Source: an uncultured virus (IMG/VR IMGVR_UViG_3300044638_007755) (Duplodnaviria; Heunggongvirae; Uroviricota; Caudoviricetes). From it: a stretch of 64,000 nt of DNA. The stretch lies in the IMG/VR virus record IMGVR_UViG_3300044638_007755; one strand, 5' to 3'. The notes beneath the pieces are model-generated. The model saw nothing but the letters and a program-made list of their open reading frames with translations, did not search any database and was not told the DNA's origin. Below are positions 6,592 through 38,007 of this stretch, piece by piece. A program made the translations under genes and the position numbers. Position 1 is the first letter of the stretch, and the number at the start of each line of letters is the position of its first letter.

Positions 6592-9500
6592 CATTAATTA
6601 ATACTGTAGACAATTGTGAAATCTTTGATAAGTTTTTGATAGACGATTTAATAGGACATTCTATTGAAGAGGATAGTTCTGGACCGTATATTAAATATGT
6701 CGATGGACAAATTGCTAGAGTTGCAATGAGAGATGCTGATTTAGTTTCTCTTAAGAATACTAGCTTGGGCCAATCCTCTATTGCCAATGTCTGGTATCCC
6801 ATATTTATTACAGATGATACTTTCATTTCTACTAAACAGCTGTCGGCTGATGGAGCTATAAAGAATGCAAATCCAGCACTTACCAGTGCTAGACTAGGTA
6901 TCGAAGACTTCATAACATTCAAACCCCAATTTCAAAATTGGCTTACTACAGACTCCTCTTTGATGACTGTTGACTGGATACTCAATCAGGTTTATTTTCC
7001 TTATTCTTTACAGTATGGACTACTTGGTTGGGTCAAAACTATACCTAATACTTCTGTTGATTTTTTAGGAAACGCTGGTTCGATTGACAAGTTTCCTATT
7101 GGAGCAAGACTGCAAACAAATAGCGGAGCATTAAATAATATTCCGTTAATTAAATTAGATAATAATACTTTATATCGAGTAGATAAAGATAATGAGCTTA
7201 TCAAATCTTCCACCACCATCACAGATTTGTTAGATATTTCCTTCGATTCAGTATCATTAGTTAAAGTATCTGATTTGGGATCAAACCCTGTTTTCTATTT
7301 ATCTTCTACAGACATTAGTTCGTCTTCTAATTCTATATTCGGAGGTCCAGACAAAACATTGTTGTGGGTTAGTAATGGTGATTTTTTTTCATATTTCGAA
7401 AATGAACAAGACAGACAGCAAGAACAATTATCAAAAAATATAATTTCTAAATCTTATCTTTCTCCTGCTTTATATAGCACATATACTCAGATATATAATA
7501 TTGTCACAGCAAATGAAATACGTAGACTAGACAGAGGAATGAATCTTAAAAAAGCAAGATTAGTAAAAAAAATATCTTTCATATTAAGTACCAGTCCTCT
7601 TATGACTGATTTTGGTATTAATTCGTTAAATATGCCAGAGATCAGAACATATATAGATAATTATATTAATGGTAATGGAGCAAATACTATTACTAACGAA
7701 ATTTTAGACTTAAAGAATGTAGTTGTTAATATCCATAAATTTTTACAAACATATACAGACAATACGGGCAAAGCTGTCAATTTAGGAAATCCTATTTCAT
7801 ACAAAACTACTACAGACAATATAATATATACGAAAAGTCAGCTATTGAAAAAACTAATAAACAAATATGGTGCTACGTTAAAACTTTCTGGAGATACTTT
7901 TCTAAGATATAAAAACCTATTACCAAATGGAGATAGTGTTTATATTTCTCAGATAGCTAAACATTTTTGTGACAAGTCTTTGGTTGGAACCGCTATATAT
8001 CCTGCTATGTCTCCTAAACCTAGACCAACCACTGTATTTAATAATACTACTATAGAACTAAGTGACATTAAAATTAAAAGCATTATTAGCGACACAGAGA
8101 GCCAAATATCTTTAAATAAATCTAACGAAATTAAAGTATTGCCATTATCGGATATTGGTAAAGAAGTTTTTCAAGATTTTACAATTAATATCGTAATGGC
8201 AGAAACAACAAATGTTAAGAAAAAGTATAGACAAGACAATCAAGATGGAGTTACTATAAACAGATATGTTGCAAATAATTACATTTTTGAAACTGAAAAA
8301 ATAGCAATAACTAACAACGACGGATCAATTAACGATACCAGAATAAAGTTTGCTGCGATCAATATCTCTTCTTTTTTAGAATCTAAAGTATCTGCATATT
8401 GGGAACAAATAGGTGGACCCTGTTTAAAATTTAGCGATTCCAATAAAACTGCTGAAACGTTAAGCGGAAAACCAAACCTGCTTTTCGAACAAGCCAGATA
8501 TGATTCTTCTACACAACTGGATCCATTTGTTTATCTCCGAGATACTGGAGAATATAAAATTCAATGTACAGTATCTACTCCTAATGGTACTTTTGTCAAA
8601 AAGAAAACCTTTTATGTAGTAAACGGTACACAAAAAGATCCTGACAGGAAATTAAGTACTATACCCAGTTACGGAAAATATGCCCCAGAAGGAACAATAT
8701 ATAATGCAGGTATCGGCCAGTTTTGTTATCCTGAAAACCCCAATATTCCTGTAGAAGGATTAAGCCCAGGACCAATTAATACAATAGAAGCCCAACCCAT
8801 TCTAATAACTAGTGATCATTTAAAAATTATTTGTTCGTCTTTATCTGAGATAGCAGTACATAAATCCGGCTTGTTTTGGCCTATGAAGACTTTGTATAAG
8901 TATACTACTATTAATGGAGAATTTACCTTAGAAGGTACTGCCAAATTTTCTTTTGGATCTAGTGTACCAGACACGGGAGTTGGAAACAAAAATAGCCAAT
9001 TAAACATAGCATACAATACGAACAATACTACTATTAAATTATTCAAAGTAGTACTCAAAAATACTAGAAACAATACAGACTGTGGACAGTGTTTAAGTTT
9101 TTTTTATCCGAACTCCTATTCTACTTCTGCTATTATTCCTGGTACTAGACCGCTAGAAAGAAGAGCTGTTGTTTTACGCGGAGAAAAAATTCCAGATGGT
9201 ATTACTCTCAAAAAAATAACCTGGAATAGTCAAACTAATCAGATTTCAAATACAACCGAGTTCGTAAATTTTGGATATCCTCCAATATCAACGCTAAATG
9301 CTCCTCCGATTAAGACTTACGGAGGATATAGTCGAGGAATAATTAATGACATCGGAGTAGTAATTCCTGACCATGTCAGACCTCCATTAAATGCTGCAGA
9401 ATTTTTTCCAGCAGGAGTTGCTGCAGTACCCAACATATTGCCTGTTGTAACAGGGTATAAATTAGACTATAAAGCAGATAGTATTCCAGGACAGCCTATT

Positions 9501-12500
9501 AATAATAGTATTAAATTATGTTATCAACAAGCTACTACTCAAACAGATAGCTATATTGAATTTCATAAAGGAGTTTTTCATCCGTCTAGTGGTTGGATTC
9601 AGGCTCCTTCTGAAGAATTTAATACACATGCTAACTTAAGCAGTGTGTTGAAATTTAATCCTGGAGCCAGAGAATCTTTTAGCTTTACTGGTCCTGGATT
9701 AATTAATCTTAAATCAACTTATAATAGCAATTTTGAGAATATACCAAATGTTTACAAGAGCTCTATTAAGCTTAATATTGCTTCTCCTATACATTGGGAT
9801 CCTTTCAAAAGTAATTGCGTACCTGTAGATCCAGAAGATCTCAAAGAACATGAAAAAAACAATCAAATCAATAAAGAGTTAGCAGACCAATATTCTGGAG
9901 GATCCACATACCTTCATCATGGATATAGATATTTAAATGGAGGATTACCCAAAACAGCAGAGCTTGGTATTTCTACTAATTCTGAAGTTGTTGATGAATT
10001 TGGATTTGAAGCAAATAAAGCATCTTGTCAACCAGGAGAGTCCTTAACAAACATCAATTCAGCTACATATACATATAGTTTTGCTGTAACTGGTCCGTCA
10101 AATCCGATTGGTAGCGATAAAGGTTTAAGAAACCCCAGAATAAATACATTAAATATTCAGGATTTAGAAGTTAAATTAAACTTCTTAAACTATGTTAACA
10201 CTAAAAACTTAGTCATCTGGTTAGATGTATCTCCTTCAGCAGAATCTAGGAAACAGTTAGCTCAATCAAAATCTGGAAAAGCACAATGTCCTATTACTAG
10301 AGCAGATGGTTTTATAGATAAAAAATTTCCTAATGGATTATATGGTAAGCCTAATTTTTATAGCCACTGCGGAGAATCTGTTAAAACAACTATACCAAAT
10401 ACTGGAGTAGCAGAGTATTTATCTGATCTAATAGATATGAATTCTACTTACACATGGGTTGAGCCCTTAAGACTGTATTTGCTCAATAAAGAACACATAC
10501 AAAATAATAAGTTTAATATGTCTATAAAATTCTCAGACCATGCTTCAAAATACAATGTGCCTTTTGACCAAAATTCTCTGACTTCCGAAGGTATTGGATT
10601 ACAACAAAATATTATTAATGATAATTATGAAATTCAACCAACGATAGCGTCTACAGGATATTCAGACATTTCCTCTGTTTTGTATCAAAATATTATCAGA
10701 AATAACCAACTGAATGTGGTAAACAATCACTTTGCTAAATTCAAAAATAGATCATTATTTATTAATCCTCCGGCTGAAGACGATAAATCCTGTCCTATAC
10801 ATCCAACTTATGATTCATCAACTGTTTTTACATTAAACATTATGGTTTTAGACGACTATGATGAAATGAAATTGTATGATATGGTTAATAATAATAGCTT
10901 ATTAACAGGATACGACACTCCAGATGTTAAACAAAGATCAGCAGAAATTTTTAATTCTCTTTGTTCTTGGGAAATTATATTACATACCGATAAAACTCGT
11001 AAATATGTTGCTTCTAAGGGTGGGGATTTAGACGCTTATGGAAATACTGATCCTTTAGCTCTTATTGAATACGGTAAAGAACCAAGATATCCAGGCTATG
11101 GTTTTATTGCGGATATGAGCAATAAAAAACATCTATTACCGAATGTTAATCTAAATGCTCCATATGTGTATATTAACGACTCTTCTCTCTGTGATTTTGC
11201 CGACCCCGACAACAGACCCAAAGCATCTATGATTAGGCCTCCTACTTTCCCGACAGATGCTATACTTAACATTATGGTAGGCACAACATCCGGTTTTGCA
11301 TCAGGAGGAGGAGGTCTGATTGGAGCAACTATGGGTTTTGGAGCCAGTTACTCCAGCGGTTTTAATCAGATTATGGAGTATTTTGCTAGCAACAGATTAT
11401 ATAATAATATCACAGAAAAAGCAAGATTCGCCTATGCTCCAAGATATAGTAATTTCCCTTTTGGTTCTCCAGAAAAGATACTATTAAACGTTAGTAAAGA
11501 TGGTGGTATTTGGTATAAATTAGAAGCTTCTGTCTTTAAGTATAAAAATACTCCAGTTCTTGAACACAATAAATACAAATTTGTTAAGTTAGGCAGAGGA
11601 ACTATGCCGGGACTATCAGAATTTGCTATGGAATCCGTTACAGACGTTGGTCAATTATTAGATAATAATATGTTTATTAACATATCTTTAGGAGAACTAG
11701 ATTTAATTAATGCTCAAGAAGGTACAGAGTCAAATGTATCTTATCTTGCGAGCAAAATCAAAGACATAGATAAAATAAGCAGTCTAGCAGATGGGACATT
11801 GTTTCAATTAACCTGTACAGTTCCTTTGGCACAGGACTACCTTGGTGGGTTTTATATTAAAGATAACGATACTATTTATAGAATTACCAAATCAGGTTCT
11901 CGTGACAGCGATTTACCGTTAGAGCCTGGGCGCTTAGTTAGTTCTAATAAAATTTTATCACACAATAATATATTAAGCTATAAAACAAATATCTTCAACT
12001 CCCCTCTGAATAATCTTGTTCTCTTAGAGGGTAAAATACCATTTTACGTATTTGGTGTTTCAGATACGGTTAATATATATAATGAATCTACAAGAGATAG
12101 TACCGACCCAGTCTCTGTTATTATTAATCAAAAGGGACTCATTATCAAAGACAATAGATACTACACGGTATTAGAGTTGTCAGCTTCTATTAATACCAAT
12201 AATCTTATTAGTCACGTTAGTAATAGTGACACAATTGTAGTATTTAAACCACAAACAACCAAGATTACAGAACAACCAATCAATGTTTGGGGTTTGGAAA
12301 AAGAACAAATACATCAGACAGTACCAGACACTCAATTTTCTACTACTGGACTAGGAGCATATGGTAATGGTTCTCCATTCAAAAACAAAGAAATTTTAAC
12401 CTATAAACTACAAAAGAATCAACTTAAAACAATATATGAACTATTTAATAATCATATTAATGATAGATTTAAATTTAATAATATGACAATATTTACAGAA

Positions 12501-14216
12501 TCATTAACTGAAGATGGACAGACTACAACCACAGTTACTCCTATAGAAAATAATAATGGAGCTTTAGGTTATGCCTGCTCTCTCAAAGATATTAAGAATA
12601 TTTTCTTGAATGGGGGATTCAAATTTATTCGTCATCCTAATATGACAGATGCACAATACGAAACTCTGCTTGAAGCGTTAACGAATACTGTAGCAGATAT
12701 TCCTGACACTGCTATGCAAATTATTTTTATTAAATGTCCTCATTTAGCATCCGAAGAACTATCTAGCGTTAGATATGGAGAAATAATTTTTGATGAAGAC
12801 TACATACAAGCAGCACCAACCAACCATTTAGATCAAGAGACTATTACTACTGTGGTGACTAGGCTTAATTCCTTAGAGTCTAATAATATAGATATAACCA
12901 GCGAGATAGGTAAACCTGCTCGAACTTCAAATATTATCAATGTGGGTAGTATTTCTGACTTAGAAAATCACTATAATTCTTTAGAAGAAGACCCACTATC
13001 GTGCTATCAAAAATCAAATTCTAGTAATAGATCTTCTTGTTATAAAAGATTAACTAAACAAGCAATACTTAATAGATATAAAGAAAGAAATGATCTCATA
13101 AGACTATTACAAAATCAAACGACTAGAACAACAGATGCAGACGGAAATGTTACTTATACAGCCAAAACATCCAATTCGAGTATTTTACCATATACTAGAG
13201 TATCGGTAACACCAGCTAATCAAAACAGTAATAATACTGTAGGAGAAGGTTCTTTATCTATTACATATGAAGACATATCTGATAATTATTATTGGATAAA
13301 TATCGACCCAAAACAATCTTGTAGTATTGCTGAAGAAGACTGTCCTAAAATTTTAATCAAAACTCAATATGTATGTGGATACGCTAATGCTGCTAGTGGA
13401 CCACTAGACAACAATATTTGTCCTGGCAATATGTTAGCTGGTGGTCAAATACCTGTATCTGGTGGGGCTGTTAGTCTCGGAGCGGGATCTATTCCTGGAG
13501 GTTTGTTTGGAAGTGATATGAGGATTACATATGAAATTCCACAAGTTACTATTGACAAACAAAAACAAGAATATGAAACTAAATATCCTAATATCAAATG
13601 GAAAACTAATCATATTGTTGAACGAACTTTTTTTGTTAATGACGATTTCGCCGCCGGTACTCAAGACCTTGTTGTAAGAGCAACAGAAACCTATCTTTTA
13701 GCCGTTCCTTGTCATATTAAAACTGACAACAATCCAATTCCGACTAGTTGCTATAAAAACGATGGGTCTGCGGATGTCAGTAAGGGATTAGCTGGTCCAT
13801 TTGGTTCTAGACAGAATACCCTAACTAGAGTTTACAATATTTTTAATTTAGACGATCAAAATACACTTAAGGTTAGATTCCGAAAAGTTCCTAGACAAGT
13901 TAGATCCATAGATTATTATACTACAGTATACAAATATGGTAGCGCTGGAACTGAGTTTAGACCTAACTCCAGTTTTGAGTCTCCACCGGAACTAAATATT
14001 GGTCAAAGTTTAAATAATTATTTTTATGTATGGCAGTGTTTGCAGAAAGACCAAAATAATCAACTACAATATAGCACAACTCCAGATTTTTTAAAGTTAC
14101 AAAATGAAATGTTGTATAGAGCCTTTTTTGGTAGCGTTGATGGCATAGAGAATAAAACAGATGAGTTAAAGAGTTTGTCTCCATGGGAACTTATTCCATA
14201 TGAATACGACATATAA
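6588..14216 (+). CDS. Giant putative tail fibre/adhesin-like virion protein (2542 aa)
   Basis: Long ORF containing a PKD/Ig-like stretch (YWEQIGGP...DTGEYKIQCTVSTPNG), proprotein-convertase P-domain-like motifs (IQDLEVKLNF...NLVIWL...SLCSWEIIL) and Gly-rich hydrophobic segments. Confidence 0.55.
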   Translation: MTLINTVDNCEIFDKFLIDDLIGHSIEEDSSGPYIKYVDGQIARVAMRDADLVSLKNTSLGQSSIANVWYPIFITDDTFISTKQLSADGAIKNANPALTSARLGIEDFITFKPQFQNWLTTDSSLMTVDWILNQVYFPYSLQYGLLGWVKTIPNTSVDFLGNAGSIDKFPIGARLQTNSGALNNIPLIKLDNNTLYRVDKDNELIKSSTTITDLLDISFDSVSLVKVSDLGSNPVFYLSSTDISSSSNSIFGGPDKTLLWVSNGDFFSYFENEQDRQQEQLSKNIISKSYLSPALYSTYTQIYNIVTANEIRRLDRGMNLKKARLVKKISFILSTSPLMTDFGINSLNMPEIRTYIDNYINGNGANTITNEILDLKNVVVNIHKFLQTYTDNTGKAVNLGNPISYKTTTDNIIYTKSQLLKKLINKYGATLKLSGDTFLRYKNLLPNGDSVYISQIAKHFCDKSLVGTAIYPAMSPKPRPTTVFNNTTIELSDIKIKSIISDTESQISLNKSNEIKVLPLSDIGKEVFQDFTINIVMAETTNVKKKYRQDNQDGVTINRYVANNYIFETEKIAITNNDGSINDTRIKFAAINISSFLESKVSAYWEQIGGPCLKFSDSNKTAETLSGKPNLLFEQARYDSSTQLDPFVYLRDTGEYKIQCTVSTPNGTFVKKKTFYVVNGTQKDPDRKLSTIPSYGKYAPEGTIYNAGIGQFCYPENPNIPVEGLSPGPINTIEAQPILITSDHLKIICSSLSEIAVHKSGLFWPMKTLYKYTTINGEFTLEGTAKFSFGSSVPDTGVGNKNSQLNIAYNTNNTTIKLFKVVLKNTRNNTDCGQCLSFFYPNSYSTSAIIPGTRPLERRAVVLRGEKIPDGITLKKITWNSQTNQISNTTEFVNFGYPPISTLNAPPIKTYGGYSRGIINDIGVVIPDHVRPPLNAAEFFPAGVAAVPNILPVVTGYKLDYKADSIPGQPINNSIKLCYQQATTQTDSYIEFHKGVFHPSSGWIQAPSEEFNTHANLSSVLKFNPGARESFSFTGPGLINLKSTYNSNFENIPNVYKSSIKLNIASPIHWDPFKSNCVPVDPEDLKEHEKNNQINKELADQYSGGSTYLHHGYRYLNGGLPKTAELGISTNSEVVDEFGFEANKASCQPGESLTNINSATYTYSFAVTGPSNPIGSDKGLRNPRINTLNIQDLEVKLNFLNYVNTKNLVIWLDVSPSAESRKQLAQSKSGKAQCPITRADGFIDKKFPNGLYGKPNFYSHCGESVKTTIPNTGVAEYLSDLIDMNSTYTWVEPLRLYLLNKEHIQNNKFNMSIKFSDHASKYNVPFDQNSLTSEGIGLQQNIINDNYEIQPTIASTGYSDISSVLYQNIIRNNQLNVVNNHFAKFKNRSLFINPPAEDDKSCPIHPTYDSSTVFTLNIMVLDDYDEMKLYDMVNNNSLLTGYDTPDVKQRSAEIFNSLCSWEIILHTDKTRKYVASKGGDLDAYGNTDPLALIEYGKEPRYPGYGFIADMSNKKHLLPNVNLNAPYVYINDSSLCDFADPDNRPKASMIRPPTFPTDAILNIMVGTTSGFASGGGGLIGATMGFGASYSSGFNQIMEYFASNRLYNNITEKARFAYAPRYSNFPFGSPEKILLNVSKDGGIWYKLEASVFKYKNTPVLEHNKYKFVKLGRGTMPGLSEFAMESVTDVGQLLDNNMFINISLGELDLINAQEGTESNVSYLASKIKDIDKISSLADGTLFQLTCTVPLAQDYLGGFYIKDNDTIYRITKSGSRDSDLPLEPGRLVSSNKILSHNNILSYKTNIFNSPLNNLVLLEGKIPFYVFGVSDTVNIYNESTRDSTDPVSVIINQKGLIIKDNRYYTVLELSASINTNNLISHVSNSDTIVVFKPQTTKITEQPINVWGLEKEQIHQTVPDTQFSTTGLGAYGNGSPFKNKEILTYKLQKNQLKTIYELFNNHINDRFKFNNMTIFTESLTEDGQTTTTVTPIENNNGALGYACSLKDIKNIFLNGGFKFIRHPNMTDAQYETLLEALTNTVADIPDTAMQIIFIKCPHLASEELSSVRYGEIIFDEDYIQAAPTNHLDQETITTVVTRLNSLESNNIDITSEIGKPARTSNIINVGSISDLENHYNSLEEDPLSCYQKSNSSNRSSCYKRLTKQAILNRYKERNDLIRLLQNQTTRTTDADGNVTYTAKTSNSSILPYTRVSVTPANQNSNNTVGEGSLSITYEDISDNYYWINIDPKQSCSIAEEDCPKILIKTQYVCGYANAASGPLDNNICPGNMLAGGQIPVSGGAVSLGAGSIPGGLFGSDMRITYEIPQVTIDKQKQEYETKYPNIKWKTNHIVERTFFVNDDFAAGTQDLVVRATETYLLAVPCHIKTDNNPIPTSCYKNDGSADVSKGLAGPFGSRQNTLTRVYNIFNLDDQNTLKVRFRKVPRQVRSIDYYTTVYKYGSAGTEFRPNSSFESPPELNIGQSLNNYFYVWQCLQKDQNNQLQYSTTPDFLKLQNEMLYRAFFGSVDGIENKTDELKSLSPWELIPYEYDI

Positions 14217-21315: not shown

Positions 21316-22976
21316 TTTTGATTCTTCAGCTTTGCGTATAGGATAAAATCTTCGTCAAAAGAAACTTTGTCTTCTTTGACCTTCTCAGCATGGTTTTGAT
21401 TATTAACCAAGATTTGTAAATAGTCTTCTATGTTGTTATATCCAAAAGGAATAATTTGAGTTGGTCCGCCTTGAGCAAATCCATAATCAGCATCTCGTAG
21501 CATACCTAGAATTTTTGCAGATGCTATCATGTCCGGTTTGTTGAAAGGATAGCTACAGGTTGATAATAGTGTTTCGAAATGATCGTGACGATTAATATTT
21601 TGAGATTTTTGTATTGGGCCAATCGTCTGGGCTTTAGAGTCCCAATTTGATCTGAACCCTGATTGGTCTAAGCTATCCAGATACTTTTCCCATGTTTCGG
21701 CTACTTGATCCCAATCATAATATTTTTCTGTCAATTTTCTAATTGTTTGTCTTTTATTGTTTCTAATATCTTCTGGTAACTGTATATAATCTAAGATAAT
21801 ACTGGCCAAGTGATCATTATCTGGATATACTCTTAATGCTTTGGTTTCGAGTTCCTTGAACTTGGTTTTAACCCTGATTGGGAAGGCATCGAGCTTTTTA
21901 ATAACGTCGCACATAGCACTATAATCAACCGTTGCAACGGGTACTCCACAGGCCCCGGCCTCCACTTGAGGCATCCCAAATCCCTCACATATGGAATATT
22001 GAACGTAAAGATCGAACAGATTATATACGTCTGCTAAATTTGATGAGCTAAATCCATCTGTAACAGATGGCATACCGCATGTTTTGTGCAAACATTTTTG
22101 ACAAACTGTTTGAACACCACTATAAACATTACAGCTAGTATTTTTGCAACTTTTGCATACATACGAAAAGAAAACCTTGTTAGCTAATCTAGTATCCTTT
22201 AAGAGTTCGGGAATATCCCATCCCATATCTGGATAGCTGGTATGTAGATATAAAAATAGTCTTGAGCCAAGTTCTGGATTAGTATTTTCAAGATTATCTA
22301 AGACAGAGCGAAAAGATGTTAGCAGTTCTGGAAAGAGTTTCCTTTTTTGATTTCTCATGACAGAACCAATGATAATGTCATTATCTTTGAATCCTGCTGC
22401 TTTTTTTATAGCTGTTCTGTCTTTGATCTTAAATGTATTTAAATCAACTCCTGGAGAAACAGTATCAATATATTTAATCTTGTTGGAGCTTTGTTTTTTA
22501 AGAACTTCTGCACCCCAATCAGAATATGTAAAAATAGCATCTGCCGATAAGAAGGTATCTATCCAGTCCTCTTGTTGTGGTTCAGAATCCACTGTTGGCA
22601 TCAGAATCCAATGAAAATACTTACGCAAAGGCGACGTTTCTTGGTATGCTGTCATCCAATAGTCTCTAATATCAATAACTACATCTGGCTTAAAATCTAA
22701 TAGAACTTTCTCAAATCTCCATCGACCAAATTGGTTATCTCCTCTAGACGTATATTCTTTATGTCTAGGGTCCGTGTCTTTTACAGCGTTTGCGTAGTAG
22801 GTCCACTCAATGTCTTTGTCTCTTGGGTCATTGACAAAACCATAAGAAGCAAATTCTGCAATAACATATTTGTTGGTTTTATGAAGACGAGAGAGTAGTT
22901 CTTTGGTATACGTTCCAAATCCAGAATTTAAAAAACTAGCTTCGGAACACATTAAGATTTTAAGTTTGTTTGACAT
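21312..22976 (-). CDS. GT4 family glycosyltransferase with Cys-rich insertion
   Basis: SGFGTY N-terminal loop, RNQKRK, and YNLFDLYVQYSICEGFGMPQVEAGACGVP (intact EX7E). CKSC...CQKC insert. Confidence 0.9.
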   Translation of the reverse strand: MSNKLKILMCSEASFLNSGFGTYTKELLSRLHKTNKYVIAEFASYGFVNDPRDKDIEWTYYANAVKDTDPRHKEYTSRGDNQFGRWRFEKVLLDFKPDVVIDIRDYWMTAYQETSPLRKYFHWILMPTVDSEPQQEDWIDTFLSADAIFTYSDWGAEVLKKQSSNKIKYIDTVSPGVDLNTFKIKDRTAIKKAAGFKDNDIIIGSVMRNQKRKLFPELLTSFRSVLDNLENTNPELGSRLFLYLHTSYPDMGWDIPELLKDTRLANKVFFSYVCKSCKNTSCNVYSGVQTVCQKCLHKTCGMPSVTDGFSSSNLADVYNLFDLYVQYSICEGFGMPQVEAGACGVPVATVDYSAMCDVIKKLDAFPIRVKTKFKELETKALRVYPDNDHLASIILDYIQLPEDIRNNKRQTIRKLTEKYYDWDQVAETWEKYLDSLDQSGFRSNWDSKAQTIGPIQKSQNINRHDHFETLLSTCSYPFNKPDMIASAKILGMLRDADYGFAQGGPTQIIPFGYNNIEDYLQILVNNQNHAEKVKEDKVSFDEDFILYAKLKNQK

Positions 22977-22987
22977 ATTATAGATAC

Positions 22988-23010
22988 AAAATAAGGGGGC
23001 TTTCGCCCCC
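22988..23010 (-). terminator. Rho-independent terminator downstream of ssb
   Basis: Minus strand reads GGGGGC-GAAA-GCCCCC followed by TTATTTT: a 6-bp GC stem, GNRA loop and U-rich tail. Confidence 0.85.
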
Positions 23011-23040
23011 GTATTCTGCTTTTTCCTGGATGAATTATGT

Positions 23041-23415
23041 TCAGAAAGCTACAGACTCAGCATTTTCTGTTTTACTACTTGGTCGTGATAGCTTAGCGAT
23101 CTTTGAAAAGTTATTTACTCTAACCTTCAAGCTGCTGTGTTTCACACCGTCTTTTTCCCACGAGTCATTTCGTAAAGATCCCTCAATCATTACTAGATCA
23201 CCCTTCTTAAAGGATTCTGCAATCATCTCAGCCCCGGTATCCCAGGCTTCACAGTTAATAAAGGAAGTAATCTTATCCTTATCTCCGCTAGCCTTCACAT
23301 ACTCTCTAGATACTGCAACAGTAAAGTTGACCACAGATGTTTGCTTACCTGAAGTGTTAACAATACGCAATTCTGGATCTCTAGCTAAATTCCCTCGAAG
23401 CAAAGTAATATTCAT
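23041..23415 (-). CDS. ssb: Single-stranded DNA-binding protein
   Basis: LRGNLARDPELR...VVNFTVAV...FINCEAW...KGDLVMIEGSL. C-terminal ...ESVAF tail. AGGAG RBS upstream. Confidence 0.95.
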   Translation of the reverse strand: MNITLLRGNLARDPELRIVNTSGKQTSVVNFTVAVSREYVKASGDKDKITSFINCEAWDTGAEMIAESFKKGDLVMIEGSLRNDSWEKDGVKHSSLKVRVNNFSKIAKLSRPSSKTENAESVAF

Positions 23416-23466
23416 ATGAATATTCTCCTAAAAGTTTAAACTCAAAAAAACTCAAACGCCATGAGT

Positions 23467-23494
23467 ATTATATTTGGAGTCGGGTTGGTGTCAA
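23467..23494 (-). promoter_or_regulatory. Consensus sigma70-type promoter for ssb
   Basis: Minus strand TTGACA (23494-23489), a 16-nt spacer, then TATAAT (23472-23467). The -35 box overlaps the dnaE-C stop codon. Confidence 0.85.
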
Positions 23495-25116
23495 GTGACT
23501 GGGATGAAACATTTTTCTACTATAAGACCGTCTTTGGTCTTGCTTTTATTTCCTACAAAAACGAGAATATTCTCAACAAATAAATGATGTTTATATTTAG
23601 CTAATTGTTCTGGAAAAAAGACAACAGAATCCAATACTCCGTACTGATCTTCAATTGTGAGAAAGGCCATTTCTTGTCCTGGATTTTTACCGTTTTTGGT
23701 TTTGGTAATATTGATATTACTAATTTCGGCAGCTAAAACAATATTTTCTTTGGTAAAAGTAGTTTTAAATGTTTTACAGTTACAGTTTGACATACTAGTA
23801 TCATAAGTATCCAGCTTGGAACAGGTTATTGCTGTGCCAAGTAAAGAATTCTCAGAGTCAGATAACCACTCAATTTTATCTAGCAAAGAATATGGAGGTT
23901 TATCTATAGACTGAATTAAAGCTTGAATATTAGGTTGCCTATTTTTAGTCACTTTTTTGATTAACAACATAGAACCTAATGCTTCTTTGAGGTTCTTGGG
24001 ATTGCTTTCTGATATTATTTCCATTAAAAGCTGTAATTCTTTTTTAGTTAAAGAAGAGCATATATCATATTCAAATAGCATCTCTGTTCTATTCTTTTTT
24101 AAATAGTCCAAAGCCCCAGCAGAGATCAATGCTTTACTTGCTGTTGAATTAATATTGAGCAGTAGTTGAGTTAGGATTTGTAGCCATGTTGCGGTTTTGA
24201 GGTCTATTTCTTTTGTTAAGCTTAATATCTTCTTAAAGACAGATTGACCAACCCCTTTGATATCTGTTAATCCAAAATAAATAATCTTATTCTTGAGAAT
24301 AAAGAATTCGTTTAGATATCGTATATCTGGAATAGAAACAATAATATCCATTTCGGTTGCATTTCTAACCAGCTCTTTTATTTCCTGTTGAGGATCTATT
24401 TTGTCTTTAGCAAATCTTAGATATGATGCAAAAAAGATTCTTGGGAAGTGTGCTTTCGCATATGCTGACATATAAGCATTAATAGCATATGAAATCGCGT
24501 GGGACTTATTAAAACTATATCTCTGAGATTTTTCTATCCAACCGAAAATCTCTTCTGCTTCAGATTCGTCAACAATTTTAACCTTTTTTGCTCCCTCAAT
24601 GAATTTCTTTTTAACCTTAGCCATTTCTTCTGGTTTCTTTTTCCCAATAGCTTTTCTTAACATATCGGCTTCTTGAAGATCAAATCCCGCAATTTTTTGT
24701 GAGATTTGCATAGCCTGTTCTTGGTAGACCATTTCTGAGTAGGTACTCTTTAAAGATTCTTCAAGAGCAGGATGGAAAAAGTCAATTGACTCAGATCCAT
24801 TCTTTTTATCTATATAGTGATTAGATACGCTTTTGCCATCTCTATAGGCTTCCAAACATCCTGGTCTAAGAATACTGATCAGACCAGATAGCTGTTCCAT
24901 ATTTTCTGGTTTAAGCTTACGGGCCATCGTTTGGCCTAACCTAGACTCTAGCTGAAAACAACCTTTTGTATTTCCTTCTGATATCAGTTCCCATGTTCTT
25001 TGGCAATCTAAATTTAGATTCTCTACATTTGGAGTAAAATCAATTTTAGGGAATTCACCAGACTGAGAAATAACAGGAAATTTACAACCGCAATCAAAAG
25101 TATAATACTCAGCCAT
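23491..25116 (-). CDS. dnaE: DNA polymerase III alpha subunit, C-terminal half (fingers, HhH, OB fold)
   Basis: TKGCFQLES, LRPG, MVYQEQAM, ADMLRKAIGKK, YSFNKSHAISYA, FGLTDIKGVG and MAFLTIED motifs. No PHP domain or catalytic aspartates. Confidence 0.93.
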   Translation of the reverse strand: MAEYYTFDCGCKFPVISQSGEFPKIDFTPNVENLNLDCQRTWELISEGNTKGCFQLESRLGQTMARKLKPENMEQLSGLISILRPGCLEAYRDGKSVSNHYIDKKNGSESIDFFHPALEESLKSTYSEMVYQEQAMQISQKIAGFDLQEADMLRKAIGKKKPEEMAKVKKKFIEGAKKVKIVDESEAEEIFGWIEKSQRYSFNKSHAISYAINAYMSAYAKAHFPRIFFASYLRFAKDKIDPQQEIKELVRNATEMDIIVSIPDIRYLNEFFILKNKIIYFGLTDIKGVGQSVFKKILSLTKEIDLKTATWLQILTQLLLNINSTASKALISAGALDYLKKNRTEMLFEYDICSSLTKKELQLLMEIISESNPKNLKEALGSMLLIKKVTKNRQPNIQALIQSIDKPPYSLLDKIEWLSDSENSLLGTAITCSKLDTYDTSMSNCNCKTFKTTFTKENIVLAAEISNINITKTKNGKNPGQEMAFLTIEDQYGVLDSVVFFPEQLAKYKHHLFVENILVFVGNKSKTKDGLIVEKCFIPVT

Positions 25117-25807
25117 TTGCTGTACACGATCCTTTAAATTTTACCTTAGATGATGTGTTCCTAAATAGTCTCATAAACCTAATCAAAAGCTCTGCTGTGT
25201 CTTTAACATCTTTAAGAGCATCATGTGAACCTTCTTTGCTTAAACCAAAGTAATCTCTTACATGGTCTAGTGTGTAATTTTTGAGTTCGTTATTACCTTC
25301 GAACCAATAAAATACAACATTCATTAAATCCACAACGTCTCTTGGATAAAAAAGACTGGATTTTCCTTCCTTATTGATGTTCTTATATTTCTGACTTAAT
25401 CTATCTATGATTTTTAAGTCGAATCTGTTAATATTATATCCAGCAGCAATAGGGGCACTAAAGCAAGATTTTCTATCGGACCTTGTATGATACATATCTA
25501 GGTAAGATACAAACATCTTCCATCCATGCTCTTGTTTCTGATAAGAATGCCAATCTGATAGAATCTTGTCTTTAGCGCACCCCCTTACTTTGGCATGAAA
25601 ATCAAGAACATCGCTATCTTCATAGGCGTATTCTTCTTTTTCTTCCAAAGCTGCTGGTTTTAGTGTGATATTAAACTCTGAATCTTTCACTATTTCTAAT
25701 CTAAAAGGATCTATAATCACAGCAGCAATTTGTACTGGACTACAGACATCTGGATTAGAACCATCTGTCTCTAAATCGAACACACAAAATTTTTGAAAAT
25801 TAGCCAT
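25109..25807 (-). CDS. DEDDh 3'-5' exonuclease (DnaQ/epsilon-like)
   Basis: ExoI FDLETDG, ExoII GYNINRFD, ExoIII HDALKD. Confidence 0.92.
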   Translation of the reverse strand: MANFQKFCVFDLETDGSNPDVCSPVQIAAVIIDPFRLEIVKDSEFNITLKPAALEEKEEYAYEDSDVLDFHAKVRGCAKDKILSDWHSYQKQEHGWKMFVSYLDMYHTRSDRKSCFSAPIAAGYNINRFDLKIIDRLSQKYKNINKEGKSSLFYPRDVVDLMNVVFYWFEGNNELKNYTLDHVRDYFGLSKEGSHDALKDVKDTAELLIRFMRLFRNTSSKVKFKGSCTANG

Positions 25808-25985
25808 TGGTTTCCACTGTTACTAGGGTATTTCCTGGGAAAAAAGTCTTCTCGTTACTGTTAGCCGAAGCAGTTGCGTTGATCGACTTGCAACAACTAA
25901 CTTTAACTTCTACTGCTTTAACATATTGTACGCCATTTACCATAAACTTATCACCTACTGCTAATTGACTGAACTGTTTCTCCAT
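25800..25985 (-). CDS. Small (61 aa) beta-rich protein with a Cys-Cys motif, inside the split dnaE locus
   Basis: GGAG RBS within the dnaE-N 3' end. Its stop overlaps the exonuclease ATG (ATGGCTAA). Sequence includes FSQLAVGDKF...VSCCKSINA. Confidence 0.75.
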   Translation of the reverse strand: MEKQFSQLAVGDKFMVNGVQYVKAVEVKVSCCKSINATASANSNEKTFFPGNTLVTVETNG

Positions 25986-25987
25986 AA

Positions 25988-27853
25988 TTATTCTCCATTT
26001 TTAAGGATATCTGTTATAGTCATAATTTTATCCAACATAGCTATACCAAGAATATCAAATTTAATCACGCCAAGGCTTTCTAAATCTTGCATCTCCATAC
26101 CAGCAATCGACTGCTTGTTCTTAGAATCATATATCATAGGACAAACAAGTTTTAGATTTTCGCTACTAATAACTACACCAGCAGCATGTTTCGATTGGTT
26201 AGATTTTGTTCCTTCTAAACGTATAGCTTGTTCAAATCTTTTAGCAAGAGGGCCTGCTAGTGTATTGTCTTCAGATATATAGCACCATTCTTTGAGTTTG
26301 TCAACATTATTTTCTAAGGCCCATCGAATAATTGATGCTTCTCCAGTATCTTCTTTCATCTCTTGTAGTTCGTCTGCAATTTTAGCTTCATCCGGAATGT
26401 ATTTAGTTATACGGTTCATTTCGTCGAAACTAATATTACCATAGACTCTTAATACTTCTTTTAGGGCTCCTCGACCCTTCATAGTATTAAATGTAATCAT
26501 TTGAGATACTTTATCGTGACCATACTTGTTTTTAATATATGAGATAATCTGTTCTCTTTTATTAATGGGTACGTCAACATCAATATCTGGCATAGAGATA
26601 TGGTCTGATGTGTTTCTACCAGCATTATAAAATCTTTCAAAGATCAAATCATACTTTATAGGATTGATAGACGTGATTCCGATTAGATATGATACTAAAC
26701 ATCCAGCAGCAGAACCTCTACCCGGACCCGGCAACCAACCCTTAGATCTAACGAGATTAACAATATCTTGCACAATTAAAAAGTAACTAGATAATCCGGC
26801 ACCTTGTAAGATTTCTAGTTCAAATTTGATTCTATCTACATACTGTTGATGGTCTTCTTTAGCTATTTGCTTATCTATTTTTTCTCTCCATCCTTTACGA
26901 CATAGTTCTCTTAGATATTCGTCGGGATTAAAGTTTGGCGGACATTTAAATTCTGGAAGAAGAGGTTTGTGTAGAATATCGTATTCTTCACATAATGAAT
27001 TTACATAGTTAGTATTTTCTATTTCTTCGTCTGTATGTAGACTTGCCATTTCTTCTGGACTTAGAATATGGAAATTATCTGACTTAAAAAAACAATCCAT
27101 AGCTACAGATTCATCGTTAAGAATTTTTTTATTGACATCAATTAGTGTTGTTTTAAGATTATTACATAGTAATATGCGTTGATCAATAGCGTCTTCTTTT
27201 TCACAATAATGGGCATCTGGAGTACAGATTACTTTAGTATTAGTTATTTGACCAAGCCTTCTAATATGCTCTGTCATTTCTATTTGTTCTTTAGAATACT
27301 CTCTATCCATTAGTTGTGCTTCTAGAAAGAAATTGTCTTGACCAAAAATATCTTTCATTTGAGCAATGAATTCTGTGCCAGACTTTTCTATGGAATCTGT
27401 GGATTCTTGAATTAGATTAGCTAGACTGGATCCCAAATGACCACAAAATCCTATAATATTACCATCTAATAGCTTGGATAGTGTTTTAAAGTCTAGTCTT
27501 GGCTTATGATAAAAGTTAGATTCTGAGTTAGATTCTGAAACAATATTAATCAAGGTTTTCCACCCAGCATAGTTTTTAGCCAAAACTAAAAAGTGACTTA
27601 GTTTGCTATTTTCTTTGACTTTTAATGAACTATTGTCTTTAGAAATATATAGCTCACAACCTAGTATTGGTTTTATCTTTTGTTTCTTAAGTGCTTGATA
27701 AAACTGTACTGTTCCAGAAATAGATCCATGATCAGTAATAGCACAAGATTGAACTCCAATTTTAGCACATCTAGTTGCTATTTGAGCTGGCTTACTAAGA
27801 CCATCCATAAGACTATAATGAGAATGTACATGCAAAGGGATGTATTGTTTCAT
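25988..27853 (-). CDS. dnaE: DNA polymerase III alpha subunit, N-terminal half (PHP plus palm/thumb), 621 aa
   Basis: Start reassigned to MKQYIPLHVHSHYSLMDG (ATG at 27853, ATGA overlap with the upstream gene). Contains TDHG, GCE, DAHY, GRGSAAG, MPDIDVD, KHAAG and KFDILG. Confidence 0.95.
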   Translation of the reverse strand: MKQYIPLHVHSHYSLMDGLSKPAQIATRCAKIGVQSCAITDHGSISGTVQFYQALKKQKIKPILGCELYISKDNSSLKVKENSKLSHFLVLAKNYAGWKTLINIVSESNSESNFYHKPRLDFKTLSKLLDGNIIGFCGHLGSSLANLIQESTDSIEKSGTEFIAQMKDIFGQDNFFLEAQLMDREYSKEQIEMTEHIRRLGQITNTKVICTPDAHYCEKEDAIDQRILLCNNLKTTLIDVNKKILNDESVAMDCFFKSDNFHILSPEEMASLHTDEEIENTNYVNSLCEEYDILHKPLLPEFKCPPNFNPDEYLRELCRKGWREKIDKQIAKEDHQQYVDRIKFELEILQGAGLSSYFLIVQDIVNLVRSKGWLPGPGRGSAAGCLVSYLIGITSINPIKYDLIFERFYNAGRNTSDHISMPDIDVDVPINKREQIISYIKNKYGHDKVSQMITFNTMKGRGALKEVLRVYGNISFDEMNRITKYIPDEAKIADELQEMKEDTGEASIIRWALENNVDKLKEWCYISEDNTLAGPLAKRFEQAIRLEGTKSNQSKHAAGVVISSENLKLVCPMIYDSKNKQSIAGMEMQDLESLGVIKFDILGIAMLDKIMTITDILKNGE

Positions 27854-28890
27854 GTTCCGGGAGCTTTGTATGATCCAAAGGAGTGATTCGGGTGCTTGTA
27901 TAGCCCTATAGTAGCGTCGATTCCATATAAGTCTAGATCGTGTTTTATTTGTTCGCACTTTGTCATGGTCGTGTCCTTTGAGCACAACTGACCATTTCTA
28001 TACTCGATAACAGGTTCGATACTAGTATTAGCAAAAGTAGTCTTACCAAAATGACACAGTTTACTACACATCCAAGACTTATTAAGTTTAGGTTTAGTAG
28101 TTTGTTTTATTATATCAAATTTTCTACGAAGTATATTTTCTGTTTCAGCAATATCGCTATCATGAAAACAAATAGAAAAAGGTCCACCATCATTAATAAA
28201 ATAGATAGAGAATATAATGTTTTTAATATCAGGATATAAGTGTTTAATGGCATAGTGGTAAATTCTTAGTTGTGGATCGTTCTCAAGCTTTTCTTGGGTT
28301 TTTTCTTGTCCCGTTGCCCAGTCTAATCTTTTACCTGTTTTCCAGTCAATTACCTCGATAGTATCTTTATTAACAAGAGTTATTAAATCAATAGTACCTT
28401 TCATGGCCAAATTACCCTCTAATACAGAACCGTCTGTAAGATTATAAGAGTATTTAGACCATGGTTTTTTTATTTCAAAATCAAAATGTTGTTCTGGCAT
28501 TAAAATATTACGATTTCTAGGATCAAACATGCCATTATTTAATTCGATTGCCTTATAAACCCAGGAATGACAATCCTTATAGTCTTTAGGTGCCCACTTG
28601 TGATGCGGAGATCTCTCTGTGTAGTGCTTGTATACTTTTTGTGTGATAGTATCCAGATTATAATTATTCACATCAATATGGCCAACTACATCATCGTCTA
28701 TTTCGGTCATACCGTCTTGCTGTCCTTTTTTAATGACAGCTAAAATTTCTAAAACCTTATGGACAATAGTTCCTTTATCGGCCTTTTGACCAGACGGACC
28801 TCTCCATCCAAGAACATATTCAATAAAATATTGTTGCTCACAAAGACTGTGGGTATTATATGAACTACTTCGAAAGTATGTGATTATAAT
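27850..28890 (-). CDS. Cas4/AddB-like PD-(D/E)XK exonuclease with putative Fe-S cluster (346 aa; probable ATT start)
   Basis: KGTIDLI...VIDWKTG...QLRIY motifs and C-terminal CSKLC...C. The frame is open upstream of the listed ATG and adds SSSYNTHSLCEQQY...KGTIVHKVLE. GAGGAG lies 8 nt upstream of ATT at 28890. Confidence 0.85.
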   Translation of the reverse strand: MIITYFRSSSYNTHSLCEQQYFIEYVLGWRGPSGQKADKGTIVHKVLEILAVIKKGQQDGMTEIDDDVVGHIDVNNYNLDTITQKVYKHYTERSPHHKWAPKDYKDCHSWVYKAIELNNGMFDPRNRNILMPEQHFDFEIKKPWSKYSYNLTDGSVLEGNLAMKGTIDLITLVNKDTIEVIDWKTGKRLDWATGQEKTQEKLENDPQLRIYHYAIKHLYPDIKNIIFSIYFINDGGPFSICFHDSDIAETENILRRKFDIIKQTTKPKLNKSWMCSKLCHFGKTTFANTSIEPVIEYRNGQLCSKDTTMTKCEQIKHDLDLYGIDATIGLYKHPNHSFGSYKAPGT

Positions 28891-29612
28891 TTTAGTATCT
28901 CCTCTAAAATATTTTTGGTTTCTGTTAGTTGTTCTAATATGGACATATTATCATTATTTAATACAAAATCAAAATTTGTCCAATTATAATTTTCTGGATC
29001 TAAGATGGTTTCGCTAATGTGGTCAGAATGATGCAAATCTCTTGAAAGTCTCAGAATTTTACCATTATTATTTTTAACTATGTCTACTTCATTTGGAAAT
29101 CTGCAGTCTGTAATAATAGCTAACTCTGGTTTATCTTTCTTTATTTTAGTAATCGTAGCTTCCACCCAAACGTCTGGTTTAATTTTACGAAATACGTCGG
29201 TTCCTATATATTGTAAAATATCTCTGGCTGATAGACACTTACCGTCTAATTGAAGGTTCGTTGGCGCATTTTTTTCTTCATCAGAACCATAACATTGATC
29301 ATAGGTTAATCCAAGAATATTCATACAAATATCCCTCTTCAAGACATCTGCAAAATTATATATCTTAATATATGGAGCTAATTTTTCAAACACTTGGGAA
29401 ATAATATAGTCGTTATTACCATAATGATTGGTAGGATCAAATACTCCAGCATAATTAGTATCCCCCAATAAATCAGATACTATAATTTGTCCATACTCGT
29501 TGATATATACTTTATTGGATATGCCAAGATTAGACATATAGATAGAGTATATAAAATTTCCAGTAGTACTTTTACCGGACTGTTTTCTTCCAGATATTCC
29601 TAATATTAGCAT
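28884..29612 (-). CDS. Deoxynucleoside monophosphate kinase (T4 gp1-like)
   Basis: GISGRKQSGKST P-loop, FADVLK, RDILQYIGTDVFR, ITDCRFPNE and HISE. Confidence 0.9.
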   Translation of the reverse strand: MLILGISGRKQSGKSTTGNFIYSIYMSNLGISNKVYINEYGQIIVSDLLGDTNYAGVFDPTNHYGNNDYIISQVFEKLAPYIKIYNFADVLKRDICMNILGLTYDQCYGSDEEKNAPTNLQLDGKCLSARDILQYIGTDVFRKIKPDVWVEATITKIKKDKPELAIITDCRFPNEVDIVKNNNGKILRLSRDLHHSDHISETILDPENYNWTNFDFVLNNDNMSILEQLTETKNILEEILKL

Positions 29613-36716: not shown

Positions 36717-37301
36717 CTATTTAAAATTAATGAACGGTTTCCAAGTCTCTAGTTCTTGTGTCTGGTATATCTTAAGAGCTTCGTTGTGCCAAGGCAAGTA
36801 TTTATCCGAATATTTTGGTTCACATGGCATTGTTGCTAATGTCATACCAGCTTCTTCCGGGGTTCTATTGCCCTTTTTAAAGTTACACGTAATACAAGAT
36901 GTTACAATATTGGTCCAATTAGTACATTTTTTTTGTAAAGAGGTTTTATAACGAGACTTAGGAATAACATGATCATATGTTAACTGATTAGGATGAAAAT
37001 GATTTTTACAATATTGGCAAGTATGATCATCTCTTAAAAATAAATTACGTCTAGAAAAATGAATTCGCTTATTGTAATGATTAAAAAATCTTATAGTTCT
37101 GGCAACAGAAGGAATTTTGTATTTTCTTCCTCCTGTGCCAATAACGTATTGTTCTTTATGAAAATCTAAAATTTCAATCCCATATTTTTTCTGATCATTA
37201 TATGACCTCAAAGACCATATAATAGCTTTTTGCCAATCAACTATAGTCATAGGAGTATAATCAGAGTTTAATAATAAGCATTTATGTTTTGTCTGACTCA
37301 T
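36717..37301 (-). CDS. HNH endonuclease (McrA-like)
   Basis: LLLNSDY, RDDHTCQYC, LTYDHVIP and NIVTSCITCNFKK. Confidence 0.92.
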   Translation of the reverse strand: MSQTKHKCLLLNSDYTPMTIVDWQKAIIWSLRSYNDQKKYGIEILDFHKEQYVIGTGGRKYKIPSVARTIRFFNHYNKRIHFSRRNLFLRDDHTCQYCKNHFHPNQLTYDHVIPKSRYKTSLQKKCTNWTNIVTSCITCNFKKGNRTPEEAGMTLATMPCEPKYSDKYLPWHNEALKIYQTQELETWKPFINFK

Positions 37302-38007
37302 AACTATCTAATCTTTGAAGAATCTTGGATATAATAGGATTTCTAACTATATCTGAAAAGTCTAAACGACTTATTGATATACCCTCTATGCCTTCAAGAC
37401 TGGTCATCATTTCAAAAAATCCCCCACGCATATGTCTTAGTAGGTCTGACTGGCTAATATCTCCTGTCAAGACCATTTTACTATTATTTCCTATTCTTGT
37501 CAATAACATTTTAAGCTGATCATAAGAAGCATTCTGACACTCATCGGCAACAATAAAACAATCGTGAAAATTCCTACCTCTCATGAGTCCCAATGGAACA
37601 ATTTCGATTTTATTGTTTGTCTTTAAACCAGCATATTGACCACCAGAGATAAAGTGGTGCACTTCATCTAGTAGTGGTAATAAATATGGATGTAATTTTT
37701 CTTCTGCTGTTCCTGGTAGATATCCTATTTTTTCACCAGATTCTACCACGGGTCTGGTGATAATTATTTTCTTAACTTTCTCTTCTAACAAATATTCTAA
37801 TGCCATTCCAACAGCTATATGCGTCTTACCACTTCCGGCAGCACCTTGGCAAAATGAAATAGTGTTTTCTGCTATATTTCTAATATACTGTTTTTGATTT
37901 TCACTGCGAGGTCTTAGTCTGTTTCTATAAAGCTGAGGTACAACCAAATCATGAGTAGCGTCTATAAGCTTTGCTTTTTTCTTTACGTTTTTATTATTTT
38001 TTCTCAA
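37282..38007 (-). CDS. phoH: PhoH-family ATPase
   Basis: GAAGSGKT, ITRPVVE, GYLPG, MRGRNF, DECQN, TGDISQSD and DIVRNP. TTG start. Confidence 0.95.
   Translation of the reverse strand: MRKNNKNVKKKAKLIDATHDLVVPQLYRNRLRPRSENQKQYIRNIAENTISFCQGAAGSGKTHIAVGMALEYLLEEKVKKIIITRPVVESGEKIGYLPGTAEEKLHPYLLPLLDEVHHFISGGQYAGLKTNNKIEIVPLGLMRGRNFHDCFIVADECQNASYDQLKMLLTRIGNNSKMVLTGDISQSDLLRHMRGGFFEMMTSLEGIEGISISRLDFSDIVRNPIISKILQRLDSYESDKT

Follow-up and report, generated by a model that had tools for sequence, protein, structure and literature searches.

The alpha subunit of DNA polymerase III, DnaE, is the textbook single-chain replicase of bacteria. In the 64,000-nt stretch of DNA analysed here (the window), from IMG/VR record IMGVR_UViG_3300044638_007755 of an uncultured water phage, this enzyme is instead encoded by two genes, DnaE-N and DnaE-C, and the 877 nt between the stop of DnaE-N (...KNGE) and the fingers hold two more, one for a 61-residue protein (s61) and one for an exonuclease (exo). 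The locus raises the question of how a replicative polymerase is obtained from a divided gene: are the parts joined at the level of RNA or protein, is the locus a relic, or does the enzyme operate as two chains? We show here that the two halves are intact, complementary and conserved, and that the break contains no recognizable splicing element. We propose that the enzyme is most probably a heterodimer in which the N and C halves restore the DnaE fold without a covalent bond; a separate epsilon-like protein would proofread for it, and all parts would be made from one coupled mRNA.

Two complementary halves of one polymerase

The features of a DnaE-type C-family polymerase are all present at the locus (PHP, a palm with three aspartates, fingers, HhH and OB), on two polypeptides rather than one. 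DnaE-N matches the PHP family (PF02811, residues 7-180, E 8.4e-38) and the whole of DNA_pol3_alpha (PF07733, profile positions 1-260 of 260, E 2e-73), and DnaE-C matches DNA_pol3_finger from profile position 21 (PF17657, E 1.5e-44) as well as HHH_6 (PF14579, E 2e-9). The OB match on DnaE-C (PF01336) scores 24.8 bits, under the cut-off of 27, and the AlphaFold2 (AF2) model of this half, which has a mean predicted local distance difference test score (pLDDT) of 84, contains a beta barrel at residues 459-540. The protein stops at the OB fold, and the tau-binding C-terminal domain is absent. In the alignment to the solved Taq DnaE, residues 4-609 of the N-half correspond to Taq 7-627 and residues 32-339 of the C-half to Taq 646-947; on M. 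tuberculosis DnaE1 the N-half extends up to residue 591 and the C-half starts from 607, and on E. coli DnaE the C-half corresponds to 587-898. The halves are thus complementary and non-overlapping, in agreement with a preliminary description of the locus that had been made from the sequence alone. Four PHROG DnaE families (phrog_405, 11165, 12219 and 21652) match both halves, and these profiles therefore run across the junction.

The palm aspartates D423 and D425 (PDIDVD) and D600 (KFDILG) are invariant in 47 sequences, and the break falls ~20 residues after the third of them. The structure alignments bear out the proposal that the gene is cut just after the last palm aspartate, at the palm/fingers border by the domain limits reportedly given by Lamers et al. 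2006. Twelve residues on the N side of the break and 31 on the C side are left unaligned, compared with 18 in Taq; the extra residues number only ~25, a stretch too short for an intein. None of the four proteins matched a Hint, intein or endonuclease family of Pfam at E <= 0.01, and neither Pfam nor PHROGs placed an endonuclease family in the break in the window, the gap consisting of s61 and a DEDDh exonuclease. A permissive Rfam search (E <= 1) of positions 22900-28900 revealed no intron or other RNA family at the break; its only two matches, both sub-threshold and to small RNAs, lie outside it. The view that the break harbours neither intein nor intron thus stands, as does the assertion that its position is not that of cyanobacteria: the split-intein site of the latter is Y/CFNKSH, as given in the preliminary description, and RYSFNKSH is uninterrupted at C-half residues 199-206.

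Conservation of the split locus

A scan of IMG/VR with the C-half returned 480 relatives, of which the best 80 loci (C-half identity 54-100%) were kept. The exonuclease gene lies directly upstream of the C-half in every one of them; s61 was detected by tblastn in 79, and the 80th, L077, has a 69-aa open reading frame (ORF) at the s61 position. The N-half is undivided in 69 loci and divided in two in 10, and in one it runs off the end of the contig. The order PD-(D/E)XK nuclease, DnaE-N, s61, exo, DnaE-C, SSB is kept down to 54% C-half identity. A gene order found again in all 80 related loci reflects neither chance nor misassembly.

Spacing was measured in the 74 loci in which all four genes are complete. 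DnaE-N and s61 are separated by -26 to +4 nt in 68 of these, s61 and exo overlap by 8 nt in 52, and exo and DnaE-C are -17 to +22 nt apart in all 74. The six outliers at the first junction (~1.83-1.85 kb) are provisionally attributed to distances taken from the wrong piece in two-piece loci. This persistent overlap or abutment is the arrangement of a coupled operon, as had been supposed. Compared with four relatives, and where synonymous divergence (dS) could be estimated, the ratio of non-synonymous to synonymous rates (dN/dS) is 0.05-0.12 for DnaE-N, exo and DnaE-C and 0.17-0.24 for s61, several dS values being saturated. All four genes are under purifying selection.

A search of 1.84 billion representative proteins with the C-half gave 4574 matches at E <= 1e-30, and the best 150 clusters (50% identity) were examined. 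C-half-only proteins account for 145 of these, many with inteins at other sites, and just five are continuous over the junction: P0084, P0089 and P0121 are full-length DnaE, and P0011 and P0098 start inside the palm. The split is therefore not peculiar to one assembly set among contiguous relatives. The inteins, many with LAGLIDADG, occupy at least four C-half sites (P0002, P0005, P0006, P0009, P0010, P0014, P0017, P0042, P0148 and P0149); one of these sites, between FNK and S(H), is three residues off the classical cyanobacterial DnaE intein site.

No close relative was found by blastn or tblastn in the GenBank phage collection, which may lack near-identical records. The former produced three matches of ~100 nt only; the latter, with the C-half as query, matched 1309 records, all at <60% identity (best listed ~30%), and the four listed matches that were inspected all lie within continuous DnaE genes.

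Continuous relatives and the direction of change

The locus of P0011, L081, has the order PD-(D/E)XK, N1, a LAGLIDADG endonuclease gene, fused N2+C, SSB, a glycosyltransferase and exo. Here the junction is continuous and the proofreader gene has moved downstream of SSB; s61 was not found in the 28-kb record. For the continuous form P0089 no IMG/VR locus was found.

L081 (4977-9451) also carries a second DnaE break, which is present in 10 of the 80 loci (L005:2140-5133, L039:2126-5119, L041-L043, L045-L047, L049 and L062). In these the N-half is cut next to PDIDVD, without an intein, and a LAGLIDADG gene occupies the gap; a free-standing gene of this kind, of 236-283 aa, was seen in L005, L039 and L081. 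The N2 piece that follows has a head of ~87 aa in which no Pfam family was found, and no intein domain was detected. Such an arrangement is typical of 'genes in pieces' made by endonucleases, and its occurrence in relatives indicates that the polymerase tolerates intein-less cuts.

Trees of the C-half were built with FastTree (142 rows, three outgroups and nine representatives being left out by a 70% coverage filter) and with IQ-TREE in quick mode (145 rows), the latter rooted on the DnaE of Streptomyces phage Nanodon, Bacillus phage Anath and Moorella phage MTATph1. In both, the five junction-continuous proteins occupy two spots deep within a split radiation, and on this placement one old split followed by at least one re-fusion is probably a likelier history than repeated identical splits. 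It could be argued that the gene was instead split many times independently at the same loop. The two positions of the continuous forms would fit such a history, and so would the readiness with which this lineage breaks DnaE, as seen at the second break. In addition, the approximately unbiased (AU) test disfavoured the tree that places all continuous forms with the outgroups (difference in log likelihood 86.6) only at p 0.033, on a 47-row subset from which P0002 (branch length 10.0 in the IQ-TREE tree) had been left out, and with a grouping that was chosen once the tree was known. We nevertheless regard recurrent splitting as unlikely. Every split form examined, including the distant L082, L094 and L158, has the same breakpoint with the exonuclease gene in the gap, the basal branches of the outgroup-rooted IQ-TREE tree are all split, and the fewest state changes on the tree is two. 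In the N-half tree, too, P0084/P0089 fall within the split forms L094 and L082 (support 0.98-1.0); P0121 has a basal position there, at a point where its split neighbours are unsampled.

The leader of the C-half and the variable gap

The C-half begins with a leader in which five residues (C9, G10, C11, F13 and F27) reach 90% conservation or more across 56 sequences, and which forms a small beta sheet in a partner-free AF2 model (pLDDT 81-86 for residues 1-30). Continuous DnaE proteins (P0011, P0098 and P0121) have no counterpart of it. The junction of P0011 reads ...KLDILGVAMLDKVMCVRDLLKVKG-IDFNLDIEEIPLDCERTW..., which is the N-tail of the window joined straight to the part of the C-half after the leader; the leader is therefore an addition of split forms, and the comparison shows the N-tail and the post-leader C-half to be a single loop in the unsplit enzyme. 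The description of the leader as novel thus holds with respect to continuous relatives, but the element is not universal, as two split forms, L031 and L055, lack it.

The exonuclease matches RNase_T (PF00929, E 2e-10) and has all of the Exo I (DxE), Exo II (D) and Exo III (HxxxxD) residues. Across 53 sequences E13, D130, H195 and D200 of the DEDDh set show no variation, and D11 reaches at least 90% conservation. The C-terminal tail, K-x-K-F-K-x-S-F, is also conserved.

In s61, F14, C31 and C32 are invariant in 54 sequences. Its AF2 model is all-beta, with five strands (pLDDT 92), and VIA-align ranked EF-P domain I first (best Z 5.2), followed down to ~4 by FeoA, CarD, Tudor and KOW, which marks the predicted structure as a generic SH3-like barrel, a kind that often serves as an adaptor. 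The family has no match in Pfam or PHROGs, Foldseek returned nothing from the PDB at E <= 0.001, and in the Atlas only viral hypothetical clusters were hit. No fusion partner of the s61 domain was found among the longer proteins searched, which is weak evidence. A role as a theta (HOT) subunit that stabilizes epsilon was rejected: the theta fold is helical, whereas the s61 model is all-beta and SH3-like, and no Pfam match was found. A link between the Cys pair of s61 and the CGC of the leader is suggestive, but the two do not strictly co-vary, L031 and L055 having the CC and no leader.

Beyond the close relatives the contents of the gap change. In L094 the exonuclease gene starts 6 nt after the N-half and s61 is absent; the s61-like proteins of L082 and L158 are longer (126 and 189 aa) and carry acidic tails, and L082 has a 341-aa zinc-finger ORF in the gap as well. 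Extra ORFs lie between exo and DnaE-C in L090 and L158, and a 231-aa ORF lies between DnaE-N and s61 in L126. Since s61 is absent or replaced in some split lineages it is accessory, probably an adaptor confined to a subclade and not required for the split. The preliminary description had suggested a search of phage metagenomes for the same four-gene order and breakpoint, and had envisaged an enzyme of up to four subunits. The order recurs in the 80 closer loci and is not kept in full in the distant ones, and a fixed four-subunit enzyme is not supported, given so inconstant an s61. The constant feature is the break with the exonuclease gene in the gap, not a four-gene cassette.

Proposed assembly of a two-chain replicase

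Taken together, we propose that the replicative polymerase of the phage, a C-family enzyme of the Pol III alpha type, consists of two chains that are divided between palm and fingers and not covalently joined. The halves would reassemble through the large native palm-fingers interface, probably with the aid of the ~25-31-residue leader, a predicted beta-hairpin found only in split forms. The DEDDh exonuclease encoded in the gap would supply proofreading and may be tethered through its conserved C-terminal tail. The overlapping or abutting stop and start codons along PD-(D/E)XK, DnaE-N, s61, exo and DnaE-C suggest that translation is coupled on one mRNA.

Several points weigh against this proposal. 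L031 and L055 have no leader, and L094, L082 and L158 have either no s61 or another protein in its place; as each is thus wanting in some split forms, neither is a general assembly device. An RNA-level event is argued against just by the lack of room and of Rfam matches, a second polymerase may be encoded elsewhere in the genome, as the record is incomplete, and the binding of the halves to one another and their joint activity are deduced from sequence.

The proposal can be extended, in a form that we consider doubtful. The palm/fingers break would be ancestral in a huge phage DnaE clade and reversible, with at least one re-fusion in which the proofreader gene was expelled; the exonuclease would have come to lie in the break through gene-order assembly on one mRNA; and the CGC leader, often with the CC of s61, would form a metal- or disulfide-linked clasp that locks the fingers to the palm beside the exonuclease. 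If true, such phages would have a PolC-like built-in proofreader achieved through gene order and not through domain fusion.

It is also conceivable that the split locus is decaying or non-functional and that replication is carried out by a host polymerase, or by another phage polymerase outside the record. The record is just 66% complete, and jumbo phages are described in which a split minimal Pol III accompanies PolB (Iyer et al. 2021, PMC7824862). Decay is, however, very unlikely in view of ORFs that are intact in every locus examined, catalytic residues that are invariant or nearly so and dN/dS values of ~0.05-0.12; moreover, a full replication module (DnaB, primase, SSB, a UvsX-like recombinase and ribonucleotide reductase) surrounds the locus, and no PolA or PolB was found in 92 kb.

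Post-translational joining by an unrecognized splicing or ligation element, for example a very short atypical split intein, is harder still to credit, and we hold it to be highly improbable. Relatives do have Intein_splicing domains at four other sites in the C-half (near query positions 83, 130, 150 and 204), and the leader carries conserved Cys residues. Nevertheless, only ~12 residues follow the last Taq-aligned residue of the N-half and ~31 precede the first aligned residue of the C-half, lengths far below those of any intein known to us; there is no Hint or intein Pfam match, and the split forms L031 and L055 lack the leader altogether. Finally, group I introns occur in phage genes and T4 gene 60 is read by translational bypass, but a joining of the frames here by an intron, trans-splicing or ribosomal bypass of the 877-nt gap is extremely improbable, given that the gap is filled by two conserved genes under purifying selection, varies in length and content (extra unrelated ORFs in L090, L126, L082 and L158) and matches no Rfam family at E <= 1.

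Gene junctions and genome setting

Table 1. Features of the split dnaE locus, in window coordinates
Feature	Position	Strand	Description	Evidence
Terminator-like hairpin	22995-23010	-	GC hairpin and T run, after SSB	Consensus scan
SSB gene	23041-23415	-	Downstream of DnaE-C	PF00436 (E 5.5e-25); position kept in relatives
Sigma-70-like promoter	23467-23494	-	TTGACA, 16-nt spacer, TATAAT (12/12 match); at end of DnaE-C gene, before SSB	Consensus scan only
DnaE-C	23491-25116	-	Leader, fingers, HhH, OB fold; 541 aa; N terminus MAEYYTFDCGCKFP	PF17657, PF14579, weak PF01336
DnaE-C leader	25024-25116	-	Residues 1-31; Y-x-F-x-C-G-C-x-F, variable loop, I-x-F	Conservation; AF2 model
exo	25109-25807	-	DEDDh (DnaQ/epsilon-like) 3'-5' exonuclease; 232 aa	PF00929; phrog_192 (DNA polymerase exonuclease subunit)
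s61	25800-25985	-	61-aa ORF; predicted SH3-like beta-barrel mini-protein with invariant Cys-Cys	AF2 model; conservation
DnaE-N	25988-27853	-	PHP, palm with catalytic PDIDVD and KFDILG aspartates, thumb; 621 aa; C terminus ...DILKNGE	PF02811, PF07733; Taq DnaE alignment
PD-(D/E)XK nuclease gene	27850-28710	-	Directly upstream of DnaE-N	PF12705; position kept in relatives

ORF calling places PD-(D/E)XK, DnaE-N, s61, exo and DnaE-C in one chain of overlapping or abutting genes, followed after a 75-nt spacer by SSB (Table 1). The ATG of DnaE-N at 27853 overlaps the stop of the PD-(D/E)XK gene by 4 nt (ACATGAAACAA); a longer, GTG-initiated ORF for DnaE-N was rejected, homology support for it being absent. 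The s61/exo (25800-25807) and exo/C (25109-25116) junctions are both AATGGCTRA, an 8-nt stop-start overlap (..N G stop / M A ..), and this is the commonest spacing among relatives at either junction. The perfect match to the promoter consensus before SSB and the strong terminator-like hairpin after it suggest that SSB is a transcription unit of its own; over the consensus scan as a whole, promoter-like sites are as numerous as expected from shuffles.

The PD-(D/E)XK frame is open upstream of its called ATG, from 28710 to ~28881-28884 (minus strand), and there encodes ...IIITYFRSSSYNTHSLCEQQY..., which matches the N termini of relatives. As no ATG, GTG or TTG occurs in this extension (28710-28884), the protein is probably longer than the 286 aa called, or else translation begins at an unusual start. 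In three relatives (L005:38-2026, L039:141-2129 and L060:1281-3266) the nuclease reaches 661-662 aa through an in-frame insert of ~320 aa with a LAGLIDADG match; the insert looks intein-like, and no splicing-domain match was seen in it.

The IMG/VR virus record to which the window belongs is 92 kb long and, by CheckV, 66% complete. Pfam and PHROGs identified, as neighbours in the replication module, DnaB helicase, primase, SSB, dNMP kinase, a UvsX-like recombinase, ribonucleotide reductase, dCMP deaminase, PhoH and several HNH endonucleases. The PolA, PolB and DnaN (beta-clamp) families were not found in this incomplete record. At 36717-37806 (minus strand) a PhoH-like ORF of 174 aa, whose match is limited to profile positions 110-281 of 323, is directly followed by an HNH endonuclease gene; a mobile endonuclease may have cut PhoH as well. 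Two ORFs of 193 and 186 aa (46096-46677 and 50463-51023, minus strand) both match positions 308-463 of the DNA methyltransferase family phrog_2675 and are separated by five ORFs without a PHROG match. On the strand opposite to DnaE, two giant ORFs of 1991 and 2542 aa (616-14216, plus strand) also lack a PHROG match.

Comparison with known systems

A widespread and evolutionarily stable DnaE of two chains, cut between palm and fingers, would mean that this hinge tolerates a break. Such an enzyme offers a ready-made system in which to study fingers closing, proofreading hand-off and subunit assembly in C-family polymerases, and a natural model for polymerase modules that are to be split or exchanged. 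The break further suggests that a divided gene can persist over long periods and then be rejoined. No description of the DnaE-N, exonuclease, DnaE-C arrangement was found in the full-text literature, a search that did not extend to subscription journals.

With the single-chain DnaE enzymes of Taq (2hpi/3e0d), E. coli (2hnh/5fku) and M. tuberculosis (5lew) the phage polymerase shares its domains and their order, the catalytic aspartates and a separate epsilon-type exonuclease. It differs from them in consisting of two polypeptides, in the extra leader at the break, in the lack of a tau-binding C-terminal domain and in having the exonuclease gene inside the locus. The halves of cyanobacterial DnaE are encoded at separate loci, whereas those of the phage flank s61 and exo in one.

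Environmental dnaE loci broken by split inteins and endonuclease genes have been described as 'fractured' (Dassa et al. 2009, PMC2677866). Both these and the cyanobacterial genes have in common with the phage locus a dnaE divided into two genes, and the fractured loci share its environmental, phage-like setting. In contrast with both, the break described here lies at another site, has no intein halves and no homing endonuclease, and leaves FNKSH intact.

Splits without splicing are known from T4-related phages. In phage Aeh1, nrdA is split by mobE into NrdA-a and NrdA-b, which form a working enzyme and for which tails derived from the break are essential (PMC3045599). Similarly, gp43 is encoded as 43A and 43B in Aeromonas phages 25 and 44RR, and the halves of the phage 25 enzyme co-purify and polymerize (PMC2988022). 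In these 'genes in pieces', as in the locus studied here, an essential replication enzyme consists of two unspliced polypeptides; reassembly was demonstrated there and is inferred here. Like the Aeh1 tails, the leader of ~25-31 aa is specific to the break, being absent in continuous relatives, and it may have a function in the split enzyme; the LAGLIDADG-associated second break in 10 of the 80 relatives resembles the nrdA/mobE type. The present system differs in that a C-family polymerase is divided, the gap holds the gene of this polymerase's own proofreader instead of a mobile endonuclease, and the split characterizes a very large clade and not single phages.

Two-subunit polymerases also occur in other phages. 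In PhiKZ, the B-family DNAP-N and DNAP-C form a stable 1:1 complex (PMC13648687), and the minimal Pol III alpha of T4-like jumbo phages, which lacks PHP, is split between distant genes and accompanies a PolB (Iyer et al. 2021, PMC7824862). These enzymes have in common with the one described here that a phage DNA polymerase is built from two separately encoded subunits. In contrast with the family B enzyme of PhiKZ and the minimal Pol III of jumbo phages, however, the present polymerase is a full-length DnaE cut once, encoded by adjacent genes and the only polymerase seen in the 92-kb record. Thus, the layout matches neither that of Dassa et al. 2009 nor that of Iyer et al. 2021. Intein-less split phage enzymes were already known; this study adds the evidence for re-fusion, the context of the continuous locus L081, the variability of the gap and the predicted fold of s61, and extends the concept of 'genes in pieces' from single phages to thousands of aquatic phages.

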